A stretch of DNA of 64,000 nucleotides, from positions 6,718-70,717 of the forward strand of contig MHUV01000003.1 of assembly GCA_001823545.1 (NCBI GenBank), in the 5' to 3' direction. The translations under genes were made by a program, and so were the position numbers. This DNA comes from Candidatus Yonathbacteria bacterium RIFCSPLOWO2_01_FULL_43_27. GTDB lineage: Bacteria; Patescibacteriota; Minisyncoccia; Phycocordibacterales; UBA1550. Numbering within the stretch: the stretch's first letter is position 1; each line of letters begins with the position of its first letter. Positions 1,509-60,925 of this stretch are shown here, in pieces. The notes beneath the pieces were generated by a model. It did no database searches. It worked only from the letters and a program-made list of their open reading frames with translations, and was not told the DNA's origin.

Positions 1509-2099
1509 TTATTCCGGGTGATTAATTGGATATTTTTCAAATTCTGGTAGTAAGTTCTTCCCGTAAAGGAGTCGGGAAAAAGCCTCAGCCTCATATTTTG
1601 CACCATTGATACCAATATGAGGTTTTGGTTCTTCTGGAAGTCCTAGGTAGGAAAGGATTGCGTCTAAGGAAAGATCAGTGCGTTCATTTTTGTGCGGGAT
1701 AGCAATACTGCGTTTCGTTGCGTCCATATATGCCATCGTGTGTAGGTCGAGTGTGCGATATGGGAAATGCCAGCCAATATGCGCACGCGCAAATGAATCG
1801 TTCATAAAATCTCGGTCAAATGAAACATTATGTCCTGCAAGCGTCTTTTCTTCGCACTGGTTAATCCAGTGAAGGAATAGTTGCATTAACTCTTCAAGAG
1901 AGTGTTTTTTTGGATCGGTGCATTCTTGACGTGTGAAGCCGTTGACTTCGAGAGCGTCCGACATAATGCTTGCACCTTCCCACATCCTGCATTCGCCATA
2001 AAACTGACGCTCTGGATGTTCAAGCTCAACAGCACCAATACTTAAAATTGAGTGTTTTTTTGGGTCGAGGCCGGTAGCTTCTATGTCAGCGACTATCAT
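1509..2099 (-). CDS. DEDDh 3'-5' exonuclease (RNase T/DnaQ-like)
   Basis: ADIEATG, GHNVSFD, LDLHT motifs; start moved to MIVAD, 6 nt after TGTTATACT. Confidence 0.85.
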   Translation of the reverse strand: MIVADIEATGLDPKKHSILSIGAVELEHPERQFYGECRMWEGASIMSDALEVNGFTRQECTDPKKHSLEELMQLFLHWINQCEEKTLAGHNVSFDRDFMNDSFARAHIGWHFPYRTLDLHTMAYMDATKRSIAIPHKNERTDLSLDAILSYLGLPEEPKPHIGINGAKYEAEAFSRLLYGKNLLPEFEKYPINHPE

Positions 2100-2138
2100 A
2101 GGTCCAGTATAACATGAAATCGTGATACACTTATTTTT

Positions 2139-2699: not shown

Positions 2700-2718
2700 G
2701 CTGGCTTTAGTTATTTCT

Positions 2719-2787
2719 TATTAGCGACGTAGAGCAAGTGAAGTGAGAAAGTAGTCTTTCTCACTTCCGAGCCGAGGAAGCTAATAC
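2719..2787 (-). repeat. Partial copy (one end) of MITE-like repeat family
   Basis: TATTAGCGACGTAGAGCAAGTGAAGTGAGAAAGTAGTCTTTCTCACTTCCGAGCCGAG is near-identical to the 58152 end and to the reverse complement of the 29120 end. Confidence 0.85.
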
Positions 2788-2807
2788 GGATTTCGTGTAT
2801 GTAAAAA

Positions 2808-5021
2808 TCATACGGTTACGAGATCTTTTTCGACACGCTTTAATGACACGGCATTTACCGCAACTATTATTGAAGACACACTCATCAAAAGTGCCGCAAA
2901 TTCTGGACGGAGCATAATGCCAAAGCTAGGATATAGAATTCCTCCAGCAATAGGAATTGCAAGGACATTGTAAATTGAAGCCCAAAAAAGATTCTGTTTC
3001 ATTTTGCGAACTGTTGCTTTGCTTAAGGTGATTGCTCGAAGAATGTCTAATGGGTCTGATTTCATAAGAACAACTTTTGCAGTTTCGATTGCCACGTCCG
3101 TGCCTGCACCAATAGCAATACCCACATCAGATTGAGCGAGCGCGGGTGCGTCGTTGACCCCATCGCCCACCATTGCCGTAAATTTTCCTTCTTCTTGTAA
3201 TTTTTTTACGTAGCTCGCTTTATCCGCAGGTATTACTTCCGCAAACACTCTTTCTATACCAATACGACTTGCCACATTCTCTGCGGTATTTTTATTGTCG
3301 CCGGTAATCATAGCAATCTCAATACCCAAAGCTTTCAAACTCTCAACGGTTTTTATGGCATTGGGTTTTATTGGATCAACTACACCAATCACTGCTTTAA
3401 TGGACCCATCAACAGCGAGAATCATAATCGTCTCCCCTTTTTCCAGAAACTCATTTATTTTTTGTTCCAGTATACCCAGAGCAATACCCTGTTCCTTCAT
3501 AAGTCTCACGGTACCGATAAGTAGTTGTTTTCCGTCGACAACGGCCTTTACTCCCAACCCTGAAAGATTTTTAAATTTATCAACCGACTCTGGCAATATA
3601 AGGTCGCGTTTCTTAAGCTCATCGAGCACGGCACCAGCCAAAGGGTGAGATGATTTCGCCTCTGCCGCGCCGACGAGGCGAAGTGCTTCGTCTGCACTAA
3701 AACCATCCACGGTAGCGATGTCAGTTACTTTTGATTTTCCTTCGGTAAGTGTCCCAGTTTTATCAAGGACAATTGCTTGGATTTTTGAAACTTGTTCTAG
3801 TGTGGGAGCATCTTTTATAAGAATATTATGTTTTGCCCCAAGGCCAGTACCGACAGCTACGGCAGTCGGCGTGGCAAGTCCAAGTGCGTCGGGGCAAGCA
3901 ATGACAACCGTAGCAATAGCAAAAGAGAGAGCCAAAAGGAGCGGTGAACCAACTATAAAATACCAAATTATAAATACCAAAAGACCTGATCCTACCGCCA
4001 CAATGACCAAGTACTTTGCAAACCTATCGGCGATTCTTTGTCCCGGAGCTTTTGAATTCTGCGCTTCTTCAACCATCGTTACAATTCGTGCAAGAGCAGT
4101 GTCCTTGCCGATTTTTGTTGCCTTAAATTTCACCGATCCGGTAGTGTTGATTGATCCCCCAATGACCTGGTCCCCAATCCTTTTAGCCGTAGGGATCGAT
4201 TCTCCAGTAACCAAAGATTCGTCTATGGCAGTTTCTCCCTCAATAACCTCACCATCAACAGGAACCTTGTCTCCTGGCTTAAGAATGATGATGTCACCAA
4301 GTTGTATATCGGATGTGGAAACCATCATCTCTCTGCCATCTTTAAAGATTCTGGCTTGAGGCGGTACGAGATTAAAAAGTGCCTGAAGAGCGTCTGTTGT
4401 CCCGCGACGAGATCTCATTTCCATCCAGTGACCGAACAAGACGAACGTGATAAGCATGGCAGCCGCTTCGTAATAGGAATCGGTACTTCCCATAAGAGTA
4501 AGCAGGATACTGAAGCCATACGCTGCAGTAATGCCGACGGCAATGAGTACCGCCATATTCAGTATTTTATTTTTCAACGCAAAATAAGTTGAATAGAGGA
4601 AAATCCATCCGGAATAAAAAAATACCGGTGTTGTTAACATAAAGAGGAGCCACGGTAAAGGAATTGGAGATGCCAGATCAATCCTTAAAAACTCGGTGCC
4701 TAAAGGCGAATACAAAATTATAGGAATGGTGAGGATAAGCGAGAAGAAGAATTTATTCCGAATATCTATCTCCATGAGGCGAGCCATTTCCCGACCTGCA
4801 AGTCCGGTATGATCCATGCCCATCGTCATCGACATACTCATCTTGAACTTTCCCCAGAATCCCATCTTCGATATATCGCCCATTGCGTGCCCAGAATGGG
4901 CACTATGCTTTTCCTGATCATCTTTCTTAACAAGCTTCATCCCACATTTCGGGCACGTGCCGAGTTTGCCCGAAACAACCTCAGGATGCATTGGGCAGGT
5001 ATACATTTTGTTTTCTTTCAT
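2808..5021 (-). CDS. copA: Copper-translocating P1B-type ATPase
   Basis: YTCPMHP metal-binding domain, TGES, CPDALGLA, DKTGTLT, SSHP, GDGVNDAP, YN in TM helix. Confidence 0.93.
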   Translation of the reverse strand: MKENKMYTCPMHPEVVSGKLGTCPKCGMKLVKKDDQEKHSAHSGHAMGDISKMGFWGKFKMSMSMTMGMDHTGLAGREMARLMEIDIRNKFFFSLILTIPIILYSPLGTEFLRIDLASPIPLPWLLFMLTTPVFFYSGWIFLYSTYFALKNKILNMAVLIAVGITAAYGFSILLTLMGSTDSYYEAAAMLITFVLFGHWMEMRSRRGTTDALQALFNLVPPQARIFKDGREMMVSTSDIQLGDIIILKPGDKVPVDGEVIEGETAIDESLVTGESIPTAKRIGDQVIGGSINTTGSVKFKATKIGKDTALARIVTMVEEAQNSKAPGQRIADRFAKYLVIVAVGSGLLVFIIWYFIVGSPLLLALSFAIATVVIACPDALGLATPTAVAVGTGLGAKHNILIKDAPTLEQVSKIQAIVLDKTGTLTEGKSKVTDIATVDGFSADEALRLVGAAEAKSSHPLAGAVLDELKKRDLILPESVDKFKNLSGLGVKAVVDGKQLLIGTVRLMKEQGIALGILEQKINEFLEKGETIMILAVDGSIKAVIGVVDPIKPNAIKTVESLKALGIEIAMITGDNKNTAENVASRIGIERVFAEVIPADKASYVKKLQEEGKFTAMVGDGVNDAPALAQSDVGIAIGAGTDVAIETAKVVLMKSDPLDILRAITLSKATVRKMKQNLFWASIYNVLAIPIAGGILYPSFGIMLRPEFAALLMSVSSIIVAVNAVSLKRVEKDLVTV

Positions 5022-5043
5022 TGAGTGAATAGTACCTGTGGTC

Positions 5044-5283
5044 TTATGAAGTTAAGTCTTTTTTCTTTTCTTCGAACTCTTTCTTATCAATTTCACCTTT
5101 CGCATAACGTTCCTTAAGAATATCGAGTGCTGACTTAGATCTTGGAGTGTCGGAATGGTTGCCACCCCTTGCCTCTCTTGCTAACCATACAATAAAGAAG
5201 ATAACTGCGCCCCAAAAAATTATCATCATCAAACCTCCTCCGAAACCCCAGCCAAAAATGTCTCCATAGTAATTTCCCATCAT
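5044..5283 (-). CDS. SHOCT-domain small membrane protein
   Basis: ALDILKERYAKGEIDKKEFEEKKKDL. Confidence 0.88.
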   Translation of the reverse strand: MMGNYYGDIFGWGFGGGLMMIIFWGAVIFFIVWLAREARGGNHSDTPRSKSALDILKERYAKGEIDKKEFEEKKKDLTS

Positions 5284-5381
5284 ATATTTTTTTGTGATTA
5301 ATTAATAATTAATACAAATCCATGAACTCTTTAATAGCTTCTAGATTAATTGTTACATCGACCTTTATCTATACATACTCT

Positions 5382-5398
5382 ATACCTCCGTACCCTTT
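5382..5398. promoter_or_regulatory. Possible CsoR-type copper operator
   Basis: ATACCTCCGTACCCTTT resembles C-tract CsoR boxes and lies upstream of SHOCT-copA; no csoR gene in window. Confidence 0.35.
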
Positions 5399-5423
5399 AT
5401 GTCTACTCTATGTAGCGAGTATT

Positions 5424-6404
5424 CTAGATTCCACACCCACCTTGTTGTCGTGGGGGCGCAACTGTCGCTCCATTTCCTACTCCACAACCATTTCCGCTTC
5501 TTTGTTGTGGGGGTCGAGAGACCTGGGTGGCAATTTTTGCGTATCCTTGTGCACTTGAATAATTTATGCCAAGCATTTCTTGCGGATTCACATCCTTCCA
5601 TTCGATACCCTTGCTCTTCATGTAGGATGCTATCGTGAGATAGGTATCAGGGAACCAATATGAATTGACAACCAGAGCCGCTTTCCACATATCTTGCTCG
5701 CTCGCGCCTTGTGAGGCCATAAGTTCAAGAAACCCGAGCATAGCCATTCCGTGATTGCAGTCAGGGAAGTGAGTAGAATTACCACAGCATGGTCTATATA
5801 TGCCTCTTGATACTTTGTCTACGAGGTCCTGCTGTTCGGAGGTCAGATCAAAGAATTTATGACGGCTATAATGATCCATTGCGCTACCTTGAGCGATAGT
5901 CCACCCACCCGTTGATGCAAAGTTTCCCGCACCGCCGTAGGATGGATCTGTCATCTCTCCTGATTCCAATATTGGATTTTTACTTGCGAGCCCAAGTGCC
6001 CAAAACAAATTGAGCATATACCCAGCATTTTCGTTTGTGATCGTAAGTTTTCCCTCGTTTTGACCAAGAAGGAGTTTCCTGTATTCCTCGGTAAAAGCTC
6101 CTCGCTGATCATATATGGCTATAAACTTATCAGCATCAATGGTTCCGGTACTAACAAGTTTTGATCCAAGATCACCCCAAATAACCGGAAGCTCAACGCC
6201 ACCCGAGGGTAGAACCGCTTCTTCGGCAGCCGAAACTTGTTTTGCGCTTGGTGTTTGTAGTGAACTATTCCCCGCGTTGTAGATCATCTCTCCTGCGATT
6301 ACGAATCCTGCAATAATAATGGCGGTTGGGAGCGTGTATATACCATCAACCTTTTTCGACGTTTCCTGATCTTGAATTATCTCCTCTTGAATTTCGTTGT
6401 TCAT
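5424..6404 (-). CDS. Conserved hypothetical exported protein with RPCCGNSTHFPDCNHG motif (putative metal binding)
   Basis: N-terminal TM, CC-x8-CNH cluster, two C-terminal GCG motifs; lies within the copper cluster. Confidence 0.75.
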   Translation of the reverse strand: MNNEIQEEIIQDQETSKKVDGIYTLPTAIIIAGFVIAGEMIYNAGNSSLQTPSAKQVSAAEEAVLPSGGVELPVIWGDLGSKLVSTGTIDADKFIAIYDQRGAFTEEYRKLLLGQNEGKLTITNENAGYMLNLFWALGLASKNPILESGEMTDPSYGGAGNFASTGGWTIAQGSAMDHYSRHKFFDLTSEQQDLVDKVSRGIYRPCCGNSTHFPDCNHGMAMLGFLELMASQGASEQDMWKAALVVNSYWFPDTYLTIASYMKSKGIEWKDVNPQEMLGINYSSAQGYAKIATQVSRPPQQRSGNGCGVGNGATVAPPRQQGGCGI

Positions 6405-6414
6405 TGTTTTGTTT

Positions 6415-7986
6415 TTATGGAGTTACATTAATATCAAGCTCTAATTTCAATGTCGGATTTGTTGCAGAATCAGTTTCTATATAGACGACCTTTTTTGCCG
6501 GACCCGCGCCTTGCGGTCCGTGCGCCGCTGGGTCTACCTCCACTTCGATTATAATTTCTTGTCCCGGTTTGACTATCTCATTTATTTTAGACGCAAGCCC
6601 GCCGTGCCCCGGCATACCAAACGGACCCTTACGAGATGTGCCATTTATAATGGTTGCTTCTGTACACATACAAGAAGTGGTAACACTGGCGATCTCTACC
6701 GAAGAACTACCAGTATTTTTTATCTTGAACGAATGACTAACTTTTCCGTTTTTCATCGAAACCGTGCCGAAATCAAAAGATTTCTCTGACGAAACAAGCT
6801 CGCTATAGTTGCCTTTGCCTGAAATTTCTGCATCTCTATACCACACACTAATCCCGTTTGGCATCTTACCCACGTTTATTTTCGCAACTTCTTTCTCCAT
6901 AGCAGTATCAATTATTGACACATCATCACTCTTGAGATTAGTAATGTACGCAAACTTCCCATTTTTAGAAACAGTAACTCCGTGAGGAGCAGACCCACTT
7001 TTGATAGCCTGTACTACGCTCATCTCCTTCAAATCAATCTTATAGATAGTATCGCCAATTGGCTGATCAAAATAGAACCCTTGATCGGCAACATACACAA
7101 AGCGTGAGTCAGGGGTAGGATAAAGCTGTACCGGTCCTTTTGCATCTTGTGGTAAATCAACGTAGCTCAATTTTGCCAAGGCAGTATCGTATACCGCTAA
7201 ACTTTTCGCGTCATACACTGAAGCTAGTGCATACTTCCCGTCTGGCGTGACACCTGTCTGCACTGCCGCACCATTGAGTGAAATGTCTTTTAAGTTGAAA
7301 CTATCGATATCAAGAACTCCCATACTTTTGCCCGACAACATCGCGATATATGCGGTTTTTCCATCTGGTGAGATACGAAGCCCATGAGGTCCACCACCTT
7401 TTTTTGTAGTAACTTCTTTCTCTACCTCAAACGAAGTAGTGTTTATTTTGTATATAATTCCCTTTTCTTGTGATGCGACAATGGCGTACCTGCTGTCGGG
7501 TGTTAAAGAAATATGCGAGAGGTGAAGTTCCTGCCCAATTTCAATCCTCTTTATAATTACGTCTGAGAATGGATCTATGACGATGACTTCGTCGTTGTTC
7601 CTTTGCATAGCCATCCCCTCCTCGCCGTGACCTGCGTTTGCTTCAGCTCTTGGTATGATACGAAACGACATTTTCATATTCTTCTCGTCTTCTGCGTTAG
7701 CGGTTACCCATACACTTTTATTATCCGGTGCAACTTGCACATTGTGTGGCATATAACTAACCGTTATGCCATCTGTATCCTTGGATAAATTTATTTTCTT
7801 TAAAACCTGTTTTGTCTGCGGATTGAGTACAGCGATTTCTCCGGAACCCTCAATTGCAACATATACTTTTTCTTCTACACGTAAGGAACTATTAATTTTG
7901 TTTTCCTGCTTGCCACTTCCGTAATTAATAATTACTCCAATTATCACGATCGCCACCAATACAATTATAATTTTAATATTTTTCAT
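6415..7986 (-). CDS. YncE/YVTN beta-propeller plus DUF1573 Ig-like domain protein
   Basis: Repeated PHGxxxSPDGKxAYI blades; C-terminal TSCMCT DUF1573-type motif. Confidence 0.82.
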   Translation of the reverse strand: MKNIKIIIVLVAIVIIGVIINYGSGKQENKINSSLRVEEKVYVAIEGSGEIAVLNPQTKQVLKKINLSKDTDGITVSYMPHNVQVAPDNKSVWVTANAEDEKNMKMSFRIIPRAEANAGHGEEGMAMQRNNDEVIVIDPFSDVIIKRIEIGQELHLSHISLTPDSRYAIVASQEKGIIYKINTTSFEVEKEVTTKKGGGPHGLRISPDGKTAYIAMLSGKSMGVLDIDSFNLKDISLNGAAVQTGVTPDGKYALASVYDAKSLAVYDTALAKLSYVDLPQDAKGPVQLYPTPDSRFVYVADQGFYFDQPIGDTIYKIDLKEMSVVQAIKSGSAPHGVTVSKNGKFAYITNLKSDDVSIIDTAMEKEVAKINVGKMPNGISVWYRDAEISGKGNYSELVSSEKSFDFGTVSMKNGKVSHSFKIKNTGSSSVEIASVTTSCMCTEATIINGTSRKGPFGMPGHGGLASKINEIVKPGQEIIIEVEVDPAAHGPQGAGPAKKVVYIETDSATNPTLKLELDINVTP

Positions 7987-8008
7987 TTTTTTATAGTTAA
8001 TCTGCTCA

Positions 8009-8085
8009 TAAAAGCGGTAGGTACCACAGGGTAAGCCACCCTTGTATTATTCCATTACATGGACGGTACACCTTGTCGCTCATAG
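8009..8085 (+). repeat. Short, internally deleted copy of MITE-like family
   Basis: TAAAAGCGGTA...ACCCTTGTATTATTCCATTACATGGACGGTACACCTT (identical to 28921-28957)...GTCGCTCATAG. Confidence 0.85.
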
Positions 8086-8157
8086 TAAAAAAGCTCACTA
8101 AAAGTGGCTTATGCAGACAAAAGAAGCGTGTCGAGGTGCGACAGAGTTTCTTTTGTC

Positions 8158-8565
8158 TTAATTAAAAGATGGACTATTTATAAAAAGTGACAACCAGCGA
8201 GTAATAGCCTGTGGTCTGAATAATTTTGTACTATAATTACGGGACAAATAACGTAGTGATATACGTATATGAGATATCGACGGAAAATATTTTTGAAGCA
8301 CATATAGTACCCCTATCGTGAGTAATATTGTCATCAGTACCTGCGCGACAAATGAAGAAACAAGAACATTGGTGAATGTTTGGTACATGAAAAGAACGTG
8401 AGTGGCGGTAGATAGTGTTCCCGTTGGGCACGTAGAAGTATGGAGAGGCGTCGTAGGACAATTGTCACTCGTCATCCCGTCCATATGGTGTTCCATCGAA
8501 GAAAAGCTAAGAATTGCTCCCGCTATAAAGCCTATAAGTACTATAAATACGAGAAATTTCTTCAT
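8158..8565 (-). CDS. Hypothetical membrane protein with His/Met/Cys-rich loop
   Basis: Two TM segments, MEHHMDGMTSDNCP...TCP; first gene of the copper cluster. Confidence 0.65.
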   Translation of the reverse strand: MKKFLVFIVLIGFIAGAILSFSSMEHHMDGMTSDNCPTTPLHTSTCPTGTLSTATHVLFMYQTFTNVLVSSFVAQVLMTILLTIGVLYVLQKYFPSISHIRISLRYLSRNYSTKLFRPQAITRWLSLFINSPSFN

Positions 8566-8615
8566 ATTTCTATTCTATCACTTTCTTTTTAAAAAGTGCA
8601 AGAGTGCATCAACAC

Positions 8616-9791
8616 TTACATTATTTGATCAATAATTTTTGTTTTTAAATTTTCCACTTTTCTCGTCTTTATCCGTTTAATAAACGGATACTCAACATAG
8701 CGATATGTGAGAGAAGAAACAGATATTGTTATAACCCCGCTAAACAGTATGAGAGACCAAAATACTGTTGGTGAAATTGATGTTATCGGATAAAAATAAT
8801 CTATAGAATTTAGTATCGCAAAAAGCATGATGCTGTGAATCAGGTACACACTGTAACTTATAGTTCCTAGAAACTTTGCCACCTCTGTCTTTAATAAACC
8901 AAAAAGATCAGCACCATATACAAAAGATAAGAATACTCCAAGTGAAATAAAGTATTGGGTAAAAGAATAAGGTTTGTAGCTGATAAAATATATGAGAACC
9001 ACTCCTAAGATGGGCACCAGTGATGATATCGACTTTTGGAAAAATTTAATTTCTGGATATTTTTTATATATATGAGCAGCCATGATGCCGAATAAAAATA
9101 TAGCCCAATATCCTCTGAGTGGAGAGGAGAGAGCAAAGAAGGCTAACGGCAGTGCCATGATGAACATCTTCTTGCCTTTAAGAGAAACCGCAAGAATAGG
9201 AAGCATAAGATAAAACACCCATTCAAAAGCCAACGTCCAATGAATACCTGCGTTTATGGGAAGAACACTTATATTGTTAACAGAGGTAGTGGTAATAAGT
9301 CCGAGAGAAAGGAAGGAGAGGATACCTTTTACTGTTTCTCTGATATCTATATCTAACCCTGATTGTATGAAAATTGAAAAAATAATTATTCCCGCGGTAA
9401 AAAGATACATCGGAGCGAGACGCAAAAACCTACTTCGGTATAAAGCTCCTGCATCTATGTCTCCTTTTTGCGCAATAGCTTTTGACCAATATAGGAAACT
9501 TGTAAGAATAAAAAACAAAATAACGGCTTCCCCACCTAAGTGTCTATAAAATCTGATAGGAACAATTTCCCAAACACCACTCTGAAAATAAAAATGACTT
9601 GTCACCGCATGCTGAAAAAATACATTTATTGCTAAAAAACCTCGGAGGCCATCAAGGGACTCAAATCTGCCTCGCTCCTCCTCCTTTATAATCTTTCTGT
9701 AAAATGGAAAATTTCTTACCAATAAAATACTAAATCCCACAAGGATCCCTAAAATCAAAAAATATATCCATATCGTAGTAAAATCAAGCAT
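8616..9791 (-). CDS. Acyltransferase family 3 (OafA-like O-acyltransferase)
   Basis: LDGLRGFLA, FFILTSF, RFLRLAP, WTLAFEWVFY, LGTISYSVYLIH, TYRYVEYP. Confidence 0.92.
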   Translation of the reverse strand: MLDFTTIWIYFLILGILVGFSILLVRNFPFYRKIIKEEERGRFESLDGLRGFLAINVFFQHAVTSHFYFQSGVWEIVPIRFYRHLGGEAVILFFILTSFLYWSKAIAQKGDIDAGALYRSRFLRLAPMYLFTAGIIIFSIFIQSGLDIDIRETVKGILSFLSLGLITTTSVNNISVLPINAGIHWTLAFEWVFYLMLPILAVSLKGKKMFIMALPLAFFALSSPLRGYWAIFLFGIMAAHIYKKYPEIKFFQKSISSLVPILGVVLIYFISYKPYSFTQYFISLGVFLSFVYGADLFGLLKTEVAKFLGTISYSVYLIHSIMLFAILNSIDYFYPITSISPTVFWSLILFSGVITISVSSLTYRYVEYPFIKRIKTRKVENLKTKIIDQIM

Positions 9792-9888
9792 CTAGGAATG
9801 TTGGTATCTTTTCAAGAAATATATTATAACAAATAAACACCGAATTGTATCGATGATTATTTGTTTAAATGCTGATTTAGTTGAGATA

Positions 9889-10340
9889 CGGTGAAGTCTC
9901 GGTCAAGCGCTCGCTCGTCGCCTTATTTGCGGTAAATGAATCGGTCACAGATATTTTGTTCGCCCCTCGGTGAAGTCTCGGCCAAGAACATTTTTCCTCG
10001 TCGTCACTCGAAAAATTTCTCGGCCCTGCTCGGATGACCCATTCTACTGAATGGGTGCCCATCCTCGCTTTCGATTCCTTCACCTACCACGCAAACAATC
10101 GTCGCTCAATGCTCTGCATTGTTCTCCTTGTTTGCGGTAAATGAATCGGTCACAGATATTTTGTTCGTCGTCACTCATAAGATTCCGCGGTCACAGGTAT
10201 TTTTCTGCTGAAAAATCCCGCGACCCCTCCTCGCGCCGTCGCGCTCCGGCCTTGCGAAAGCTCCAAGTATTCGCTTTCTCACCCGGCTCGTGGTCTCGCG
10301 TGTTCGCTCGACAACACTCCGCCCTTCGATTCCTTCACCG
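9889..10340 (-). repeat. Tandem structured units downstream of tRNA-Trp, bounded by tRNA-Trp-derived termini
   Basis: TTCGATTCCTTCACC at 10070 and 10325 (inverted relative to the tRNA gene); 37-bp direct repeat 9926-9962/10131-10167; CGGTGAAGTCTCGG at 9889 and 9968. Confidence 0.8.
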
Positions 10341-10377
10341 TCGTAAAGCGTTGCTTTACGATACCCCTCGTTCACTG

Positions 10378-10448
10378 CGGGCGGTGAAGGAATCGAACCC
10401 TCGACATCGGTTTTGGAGACCGAAGTTATACCATTTAACTAACCGCCC
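10378..10448 (-). tRNA. trnW: tRNA-Trp(CCA), CCA end not encoded
   Basis: GGGCGGT/ACCGCCC acceptor, TCGGT-CTCCAAA-ACCGA anticodon arm, GAGGG-TTCGATT-CCTTC T arm, G discriminator. Confidence 0.96.
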
Positions 10449-10541
10449 TATCTTCGCGAGTATAGCAAAGTTTAGATGAAAAATGAAGGTGTGGACGACT
10501 ATACAAAAAAATACCCCTTGCGGAGTATTTTTTACGGAGTA

Positions 10542-10700
10542 TTATTTCTTTACTTCTTTGTGCACGGTGTGCTTCTTGCACCACTTGCAAAACTTTTCAA
10601 GTTCTATCTTTCTGGTGACGAGCTTCTTGTTTTTGCGTGACCAGTAGTTGACGCGCTTACAATTTTTACAGCCAAGTTTAATAAGTTGATCTTGTGACAT
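10542..10700 (-). CDS. rpmG: 50S ribosomal protein L33 (Zn-binding form; below ORF-track size cut-off)
   Basis: Manual translation MSQDQLIKLGCKNCKRVNYWSRKNKKLVTRKIELEKFCKWCKKHTVHKEVKK. Confidence 0.95.
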   Translation of the reverse strand: MSQDQLIKLGCKNCKRVNYWSRKNKKLVTRKIELEKFCKWCKKHTVHKEVKK

Positions 10701-60518: not shown

Positions 60519-60591
60519 TCCGTGATAGCTCAGTCGGTAGAGCGCCTCGCTGTTAACGAGGATGTCCCAGGTTCGAGCCCTGGTCACGGAG
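60519..60591 (+). tRNA. trnN: tRNA-Asn(GTT), CCA end not encoded
   Basis: TCCGTGA/TCACGGA acceptor, CCTCG-CTGTTAA-CGAGG anticodon arm, CCAGG-TTCGAGC-CCTGG T arm. Confidence 0.97.
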
Positions 60592-60644
60592 CAAAAACAG
60601 TTATGCCCCCGATATGAAAATATCGGGGGTTTACTGTTTTCTCA

Positions 60645-60925
60645 CGTGACCAGGGCTCGAAAGACGGAGGTCGCGAAGCCGATTTGAGCAAAGCGAAAAT
60701 CGTAGACCGAGTCGGGGTCGAGAGTACTTATGAGCAAAGCGAATTAGTAACTCGTGACCGCGCCCTGGTCGGCAAGCATTGATTAAGGGCTCGAACGCCG
60801 GAGCTATACCGAGCGAGCTACTCCGTGCGTCCGCACGGACGCTCTAGGAGCACAAAAGGTAGCGAGGCGGTGCCCAGACCGAGGCGAGTGACGACGAGCT
60901 GAGAGTCGAGGGAGAGATCCCTGGT
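60645..60925 (+). repeat. Two tandem structured units bounded by tRNA-Asn-derived termini
   Basis: CGTGACCAGGGCTCGAA (60645-60661)...GCCCTGGTC (60762-60770); AGGGCTCGAA (60786-60795)...CCCTGGT (60919-60925). Confidence 0.8.

Follow-up and report, generated by a model that had tools for sequence, protein, structure and literature searches.

The closest described systems to the repeats reported here are the tRNA-linked repeats (TLRs) of Escherichia coli (also named RtT/rttR, Rfam RF00391, and rrA/rrB/rrF). In the account given in PMC8144298 they were described in 1978 and their function is still not known; they lie behind a stable-RNA gene on the same strand, in tandem, and end in an 18-19 nt copy of the 3' end of that gene. 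The same source describes a terminator-TLR-terminator layout for the rrn operons, with the TLRs behind 5S rRNA transcribed and processed to defined RNAs (PMC8144298). A check of the K-12 tyr and lys sequences found a spacer or hairpin, a partial inverted copy, and tips of the form GA-GC-GNA-GC-GA; at lysQ the 3' end is duplicated together with the terminator. The lysQ unit is covered to at least 80% in 3,242 of 5,426 E. coli genomes and varies among strains. RtT was not found in phages, and its 25 'plasmid' matches are all predicted to be non-mobilizable, several being chromosome-sized. No account of the Patescibacteria family discussed below turned up in literature searches; the TLR inverted arm may figure in Bosl and Kersten 1991, Rudd 1999, and Egan and Landy 1978.

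Other systems share part of this design. Genomic islands that target tRNA genes by means of tyrosine integrases duplicate the 3' end from the T-loop and keep the gene intact, as described in PMC4383910. The repeat described here does likewise, but unlike the islands it spans only 100-200 nt, has no integrase, carries an inverted copy, and uses all isotypes within one family. It also resembles REP/REPIN elements (RAYT) and CGTC repeats, the latter with no known enzyme in the account of PMC3733652, in forming gene-less, modular mosaics of hairpins in patchy multi-copy families (PMC3733652). Unlike REP/REPIN it is specific for the tRNA T-loop, has host-matched arms and does not track RAYT.

The locus studied here is the trailer of tRNA-Trp(CCA) in a 64-kb window (the whole stretch of DNA that was analysed) from a genome, G000, of 741 kb, 43% GC and 99.6% completeness; named relatives of its proteins and of the repeat motif are mostly Patescibacteria/Parcubacteria. 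In this trailer, copies of a repeat element that carries no gene and has a TLR-like layout stand in a tandem, partly scrambled array (Table 1). The array holds two units plus fragments, compared with two units at the sister tRNA-Asn locus and one to three at other loci.

Table 1. Features of the tRNA-Trp trailer, in order along the tRNA strand, and the sister locus (window coordinates)
Feature	Position	Strand	Remarks
tRNA-Trp(CCA), intact, without encoded CCA end	10377..10448	-	3' part (X, positions 54-73) is the host site
Spacer	10341..10376	-	9-bp hairpin at 10341-10361; T-tract absent
Inverted arm X', unit 1	10325..10340	-	exact complement of tRNA positions 54-69
Core hairpin P1	10285..10324	-	3-bp stem, 3x2 GGA/GA loop, variable outer hairpin
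Extra module	10189..10284	-	hairpin, second P1-like hairpin and P2
Second, partial P2 hairpin end	10149..10188	-	GACG tip
Degenerate direct copy of tRNA 3' end from C56	10134..10148	-	13/15; intact in G003
Hairpin opening unit 2	10085..10133	-	similar hairpins in G003 and G020
Inverted arm X', unit 2	10070..10084	-	15/15
Second-type core	9978..10069	-	83% identity to tRNA-Val(GAC) core, 82% to tRNA-Ser(GGA) core
Truncated direct copy ending unit 2	9968..9977	-	
Mosaic tail	9889..9962	-	37-bp duplicate of unit-1 end, unit-2-type end, last truncated direct copy
Sister locus, tRNA-Asn(GTT)	60519..60925	+	terminator-like hairpin, inverted arm at 60645-60661, two units

Since the first spacer lacks a T-tract, there is probably no terminator there. 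Unit 1 is a mosaic: its extra module shares 98% identity with a module behind tRNA-Val(TAC), occurs within intergenic repeats far from tRNAs, and is absent from the orthologous locus of the related genome G003. The unit-2-type end within the mosaic tail resembles the G003 end (94% over 32 nt). All direct copies at the Trp locus are degenerate. A 112-aa ORF across the trailer had no match in a Pfam search; an Rfam scan at gathering score returned two tRNAs only, a scan of the trailer by E-value gave chance matches only, and group II intron families had no match in these scans.

An earlier note on this DNA had proposed that one element family sits behind two different tRNAs, with ends matched to each host, and this is borne out well beyond two loci. 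Each string and coordinate that it quoted was found in place: the inverted arm at 10325-10340 is complementary to 10382-10397 at 16/16 positions and that at 10070-10084 at 15/15; degenerate same-orientation copies at 10134 and 9929 match 13/15 to 10381; the 37-bp direct repeat (9926-9962/10131-10167) is exact; and a 12-mer recurs at 9998-10009 and 10165-10176 (minus strand) and at 60886 (plus strand). Its further idea of one shared conserved core stands as to kinship, since a covariance model (R1, built on 64 units, neither window locus among them) joins the Trp and Asn units, but the cores are of several types, not one. R1 matches three Trp segments (E 3e-12, 3e-12 and 7e-10) and two Asn units (E 2e-20 and 4e-6), all of them on the tRNA strand, and has no further match in the window. 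By plain local alignment the Trp-Asn similarity is modest: 26 of 1000 dinucleotide shuffles score as high when whole trailers are compared, and 4 of 1000 when unit 1 is compared with unit 1. As to fold, tandem G-A pairs remain plausible given the GA...GA flanks at the tips, but the kink-turn-like shape suggested with them is unsupported. A kink-turn has a 3-nt bulge followed by tandem G-A/A-G pairs; the conserved loop here (alignment A1) is of the 3x2 type, G(G/C)A over GA, and lacks a 3-nt bulge, one base at most being bulged. For RtT, bioRxiv 2020.02.04.933952 reports a tandem GA motif.

The array is not an assembly artefact, as contigs from three studies carry both 37-bp copies and those of run X1 tile 9700-10700 with zero differences. 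No single contig spans that whole stretch, and X1 may be the source sample itself; its four contigs crossing unique sequence have equal depth (10-12), with a 61-nt shared-module piece at 30. A 228-235 nt contig linking one 37-bp copy to the other is present in X1, X5 and X7, which represent three studies. In X5 and X7 the summed contig depth over the shared module (window 10176-10277) reaches thousands against about 20 on its flanks, so relatives carrying the module are abundant in those samples.

The Patescibacteria family is real and widespread. R1 has 45 matches in G000 and hits 103 of the 121 genomes of the order (85%), with 1-31 copies each, against 7 of 150 other genomes drawn across the phylum under stricter filters; 14 of the phylum-wide negatives were still negative on fuller scoring. 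A survey of trailers across G000, at a threshold of 10 or more out of 12 for the inverted T-arm copy, found this copy behind 18 of 40 tRNA/tmRNA genes, a direct copy behind 14 of 40 and both behind 9 of 40; the 5S gene has no unit behind it. Inverted arms follow 14 of 38 genes in the carrier G025. They follow 0/37 and 0/48 in two complete non-carrier genomes, where the whole envelope is missing, and genomes tend toward many units or none. A strict core pattern, for which counts in genome and metagenome collections are lower bounds, matches 23 of 24 congeners, its reversed control none. Among the matches listed (154, at 150 loci), 119 lie within 700 nt behind a same-strand tRNA/tmRNA gene (median 66 nt), and none of the remaining 35 is near an opposite-strand one. 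A separate metagenome set repeats the anatomy (85/122 and 58/80 among the matches listed there): 85 of 122 lie behind a same-strand tRNA, and the remaining 37 are never near one on the opposite strand. The pattern has 0 matches in viral contigs. It also occurs in two records labelled Elusimicrobia (L062 and L092, where misbinning is possible), behind tRNA genes at least in L062.

The likeness to TLRs lies in the same-strand site directly behind the tRNA, the tandem units, the copy of the 3' end and the inverted arm. TLR units end by repeating the 3' end of the upstream gene, as do these, in register from position 56 in 60 of 105; TLRs come as one to five tandem units, these as one to three per locus. 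The differences are that X', the Patescibacteria inverted arm, is longer than the TLR inverted copy and reaches position 54, that the direct copy starts at 56 rather than 58, and that there are several core types, with units at about half of the tRNA genes. The best RF00391 score in G000 is 15.1 bits against a cut-off of 45 and lies outside the trailers, and R1 has no match to the E. coli tyrT units; as the families do not cross-match and the layout is common, the repeat is built like a TLR and is not a member of RF00391. One 17-nt tip word is common to a TLR and a G000 core (reached in 3 of 300 shuffles, in one of 18 comparisons). In the predicted fold of E. coli rrB (L353:257-430), the direct copy pairs with a sequence partly complementary to the 5S 3' end; this sequence has a bulged A that resembles the extra base opposite the discriminator in some Patescibacteria arms.

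Each unit follows the order tRNA, hairpin, inverted copy X' of tRNA positions 54 to about 72, two-hairpin core (P1 and P2), and direct copy from C56. Of 115 unique units, 86 have an X' that agrees with its own tRNA at 7 or more of 8 positions (5.8% for other isotypes), and 81 have a direct copy with a score of at least 10 (controls, 0.1% of 845). Where the T-stem has wobble positions, X' sides with the 3' strand in 26 cases, with the 5' strand in three and with neither in two, so it is a copy of the 3' strand and not a 5'-strand relic; it follows the genomic trailer, not the mature CCA end. Of the other units among the 105, seven keep the register but have a mismatch, short deletions affect 11 and insertions 10, and 17 lack a run of 8. 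The direct copy is damaged or missing in 38 of 105, and X' is still tRNA-matched in 41 of 46 units whose direct copy is out of register. In 3 of 48 intact direct copies the copy runs on for 47-78 nt from position 59, i.e. the trailer is duplicated. The complement of the acceptor was found in 54 of 180 first units, contiguous in 16 and in 37 interrupted by an 18-27 nt hairpin (25 nt in 25 of the 37) at the acceptor/T-stem boundary.

Units of this kind might arise with no dedicated enzyme, if terminator palindromes grew into the tRNA by template switching and the hairpin modules were then spread and shuffled through ordinary recombination between T-loop words that loci have in common. At loci with no core, for example tRNA-Ser(TGA), terminator palindromes do reach into the acceptor; modules also turn up in other intergenic repeats, and no enzyme co-occurs with the family. 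Such an origin seems improbable in view of the fixed junctions (X' ending at 54, the direct copy starting at 56), the fixed 25-nt insert, the compensatory changes described below, the genomes with no unit at all, and the recurrence of the same layout in E. coli.

Folding of the core into a three-way junction has strong covariation behind it: the share of paired cells is 89.5%, compared with 75.4% after shuffling and 30-46% after sliding. There are 293 double changes that keep pairing against 108 in shuffled sequence, a count whose significance, like that of the tip counts, is overstated because the sequences are related. P2 has G-U-type wobble pairs, and G025 variants have the P2 strands swapped with pairing retained. 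A bulged A nine bases from the core 3' end is conserved (alignment A1); the invariant core anchors were chosen by the search pattern and so carry no weight. Core tips are mostly GNA triloops, AGYA and GACG loops and not RNA-type tetraloops: GNRA/UNCG loops make up 3 of 373 core tips but 38 of 176 tips of the first hairpins, which are terminator-like; for GNA triloops the figures are 74 of 373 and 15 of 176. GCGNAGC is described in PMC13037366 as a DNA mini-hairpin motif, the RNA counterpart quoted there, r(GCGAAAGC), being far less stable. The tRNA strand folds better than the opposite one in 60 of 60 cases under RNA and DNA parameters alike, so that strand choice cannot separate a DNA from an RNA model. 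As RNA, pairing of X' with the tRNA 3' strand beats the cloverleaf in 83 of 89 units (median 8 kcal/mol), by energies that leave out tertiary structure and folding order.

The reading that we rank first, at about an even chance, is that the repeat is a non-autonomous insertion element entering at the T-loop CGA of tRNA/tmRNA genes as folded single-stranded DNA. The unit between two CGA words would fold into a three-armed structure, in which the X/X' arm would rebuild a double-stranded copy of the 3' half of the tRNA gene, stacked on P2. After strand exchange at CGA and then replication, the tRNA would still be whole and X would be present twice, sometimes together with the terminator. For a new tRNA, X' would be produced when copying folds back at the terminator hairpin; units would be gained or lost as X copies recombine, and loci would swap cores through shared words. 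The enzyme is assumed to be a host or visiting recombinase. The proposed intermediate draws on the energy calculation for G003, in which the tRNA 5' acceptor strand pairs with the direct copy and the sequence between the CGA words becomes a self-contained three-armed insert. A model may be seen in the attP(+) of CTXphi and the attC of integrons, where one strand folds on itself to give a duplex att site whose extrahelical features are fixed, and the exchange is resolved by replication; unlike attC, the repeat has no evident integron integrase in its genome.

Entry as folded DNA is favored by (i) the targeting of tRNA genes in both collections (119/154 and 85/122) and the derivation of X' from the 3' strand; (ii) the direct-copy start at exactly 56 in 60/105 and the trailer duplications in 3/48; (iii) a fold kept by compensatory changes, with DNA-type tips (3/373 GNRA/UNCG); (iv) turnover in G003 and G020, the many-or-none distribution, orphan units, and the module in non-tRNA repeats; (v) a unit behind Gly(GCC) with a Gly(TCC) end; and (vi) the 83/89 units in which X', as RNA, would out-compete the cloverleaf. 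Against it, the search for a mobilising enzyme came up empty, neither a circle nor a free form was seen, and viral contigs gave no match; presence in 103/121 genomes suits a domesticated host feature as well as a parasite. For E. coli, raised tyrT/rttR coverage in mobilome sequencing is interpreted in bioRxiv 2024.07.17.603846 as RNA/DNA hybrids, not circles, and the 5S TLRs are transcribed and processed (PMC8144298). The optional X' hairpin at the acceptor/T-stem boundary looks like tRNA mimicry, and donor-ended hybrids amount to only four weak cases among 182 units.

Several of these points suit the main rival, a host-selected RNA of RtT type, which we consider possible but rather unlikely. 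Read-through past the first hairpin would release a small tRNA-shaped RNA in which X' pairs with the direct X and the ends are cut by tRNA-processing enzymes; this RNA would serve its cognate tRNA as a decoy, a sensor or a processing switch. Some of the smallest bacterial genomes would then hold, for each tRNA, a twin RNA matched to it. Units are always on the transcribed strand, 77 of 103 first spacers have a T-tract (compare the E. coli rrn layout with its processed TLR RNAs described in PMC8144298), the 18-27 nt hairpin lies where the D and anticodon arms leave a real tRNA (37/54), and the P2 wobble pairs and the presence in 85% of the order fit as well. An RNA function is harder to reconcile with the near lack of GNRA/UNCG at core tips, with decay that strikes the direct copy first (38/105) and leaves X' matched to the tRNA (41/46), with the wholly degenerate direct copies at the Trp locus, and with whole genomes that lack the family. 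The single RNA run, X20 (share 0.07), holds short contigs of relatives only, and so is no evidence of expression.

Searches of the genome, by subtraction, by co-occurrence and among flanking ORFs found no mobilising enzyme. ORFs flanking 180 loci include no recurrent enzyme. A subtractive screen of 844 G000 ORFs, resting on one complete carrier and two complete non-carriers and liable to miss small, diverged or lost genes, left 48 that are present in G025 and absent from G040, G034 and the examined part of G032, none of them a plausible mobiliser (G032 covers 325 of about 690 kb, G183 192 of about 570 kb). G000 has as candidates four RAYT-like genes, one Xer-type gene and two small GIY-YIG genes. 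RAYT is absent from the carrier G025 and has four copies in the non-carrier G034, and no R1 match in G000 lies at the RAYT-like genes. Stand-alone GIY-YIG is missing from the carriers G029, G183 and G166 and present in many non-carriers. The single Xer-type gene lies away from the repeat loci and also occurs in non-carriers (it was seen in G000, G025, G183, G040 and G034, and not in the examined part of G032). A DEDDh exonuclease, found in 15 of 16 carriers and 0 of 5 non-carriers of the order in a small sample, fell away across 121 genomes (54/103 carriers, 6/18 non-carriers, p = 0.2); UDG has no pattern with the element.

Some observations from this search concern the candidate genes themselves. 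The stand-alone DEDDh exonuclease at window 1509-2108 (minus strand) is about 195 aa long and conserved, occurs in 60 of the 121 order genomes, and has weak DnaQ-type matches as its closest solved relatives. At G000:C6:121650-122200 (minus strand), a small GIY-YIG ORF lies in an inverted-repeat loop, followed by a gene-less copy of the inverted repeat; the surroundings resemble an RNase P RNA gene (no Rfam match at gathering score). At G025:C1:413100-413620, the 5' half of tRNA-Ser(TGA) is duplicated, and between this copy and the intact gene, which follows closely, lie a GIY-YIG ORF and a short palindrome.

The enzyme search bears also on a route through an RNA intermediate, in which unit RNA would be reverse-transcribed and joined at the T-loop by an enzyme supplied in trans. 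The transcribed-strand bias, the lack of precision at the right junctions (of 105 units, 11 have deletions and 10 insertions) and the conserved bulged A nine bases from the core 3' end, which is loosely branch-point-like, would suit it. We regard it as a long shot, given that RVT_1 has no match in the 99.6% complete G000, that group II intron families have none either, and that X' tracks the genomic trailer instead of the mature CCA end.

Comparison of related genomes for unit number, as the earlier note had advised, shows turnover. G003, with an identical tRNA-Trp, has a simpler array of two units with an intact direct copy, G020 has a different Trp array, and other members of the order have one unit or none; unit number and core type vary between orthologous loci. 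The Gly(GCC) unit ends in Gly(TCC) letters (9 nt vs 6), and a systematic search for such donor-ended hybrids produced the weak cases counted above. Two orphan units without a tRNA upstream have tRNA-His and tRNA-Ser(GCT) ends (G000:C4:70730-70839 and C7:59387-59510) and are situated at a distance, far from the two genes concerned. The genes themselves are probably followed by islands; these appear to have inserted after the units and displaced them, and we infer that the orphans lie behind apparent 3' fragments so displaced. The tRNA-His and tRNA-Ser(GCT) genes have no terminator hairpin.

A stronger form of entry as folded DNA, which we hold to be doubtful, supposes a single-stranded circle with three arms, which would make its target arm itself, through fold-back copying of any tRNA gene it meets, and would enter by means of host enzymes; E. 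coli TLRs would be a distant branch. An element with a self-built arm could enter any tRNA/tmRNA gene at the T-loop, which would be a new route of site-specific insertion. Under any reading, the family sits at up to half of the tRNA genes in most genomes of one Patescibacteria order, and its hundreds of natural variants, carriers and non-carriers, and defined fold make the TLR question testable, in E. coli itself.

If retargeting is true, units might also anchor the gain of gene blocks. A 7.2-kb block (window about 2701-9888), absent from G003, starts at the last truncated Trp copy. Its genes are an acyltransferase, a YncE-like beta-propeller, a heavy-metal P-type ATPase and two unknown ORFs, and it is bordered by the last Trp unit and one copy of an intergenic repeat. 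This second, non-tRNA hairpin repeat (window about 2719-2795, plus strand) has 7-bp terminal inverted repeats, occurs at 13 or more other sites in G000, often behind terminators, and in some copies contains the module of Trp unit 1.
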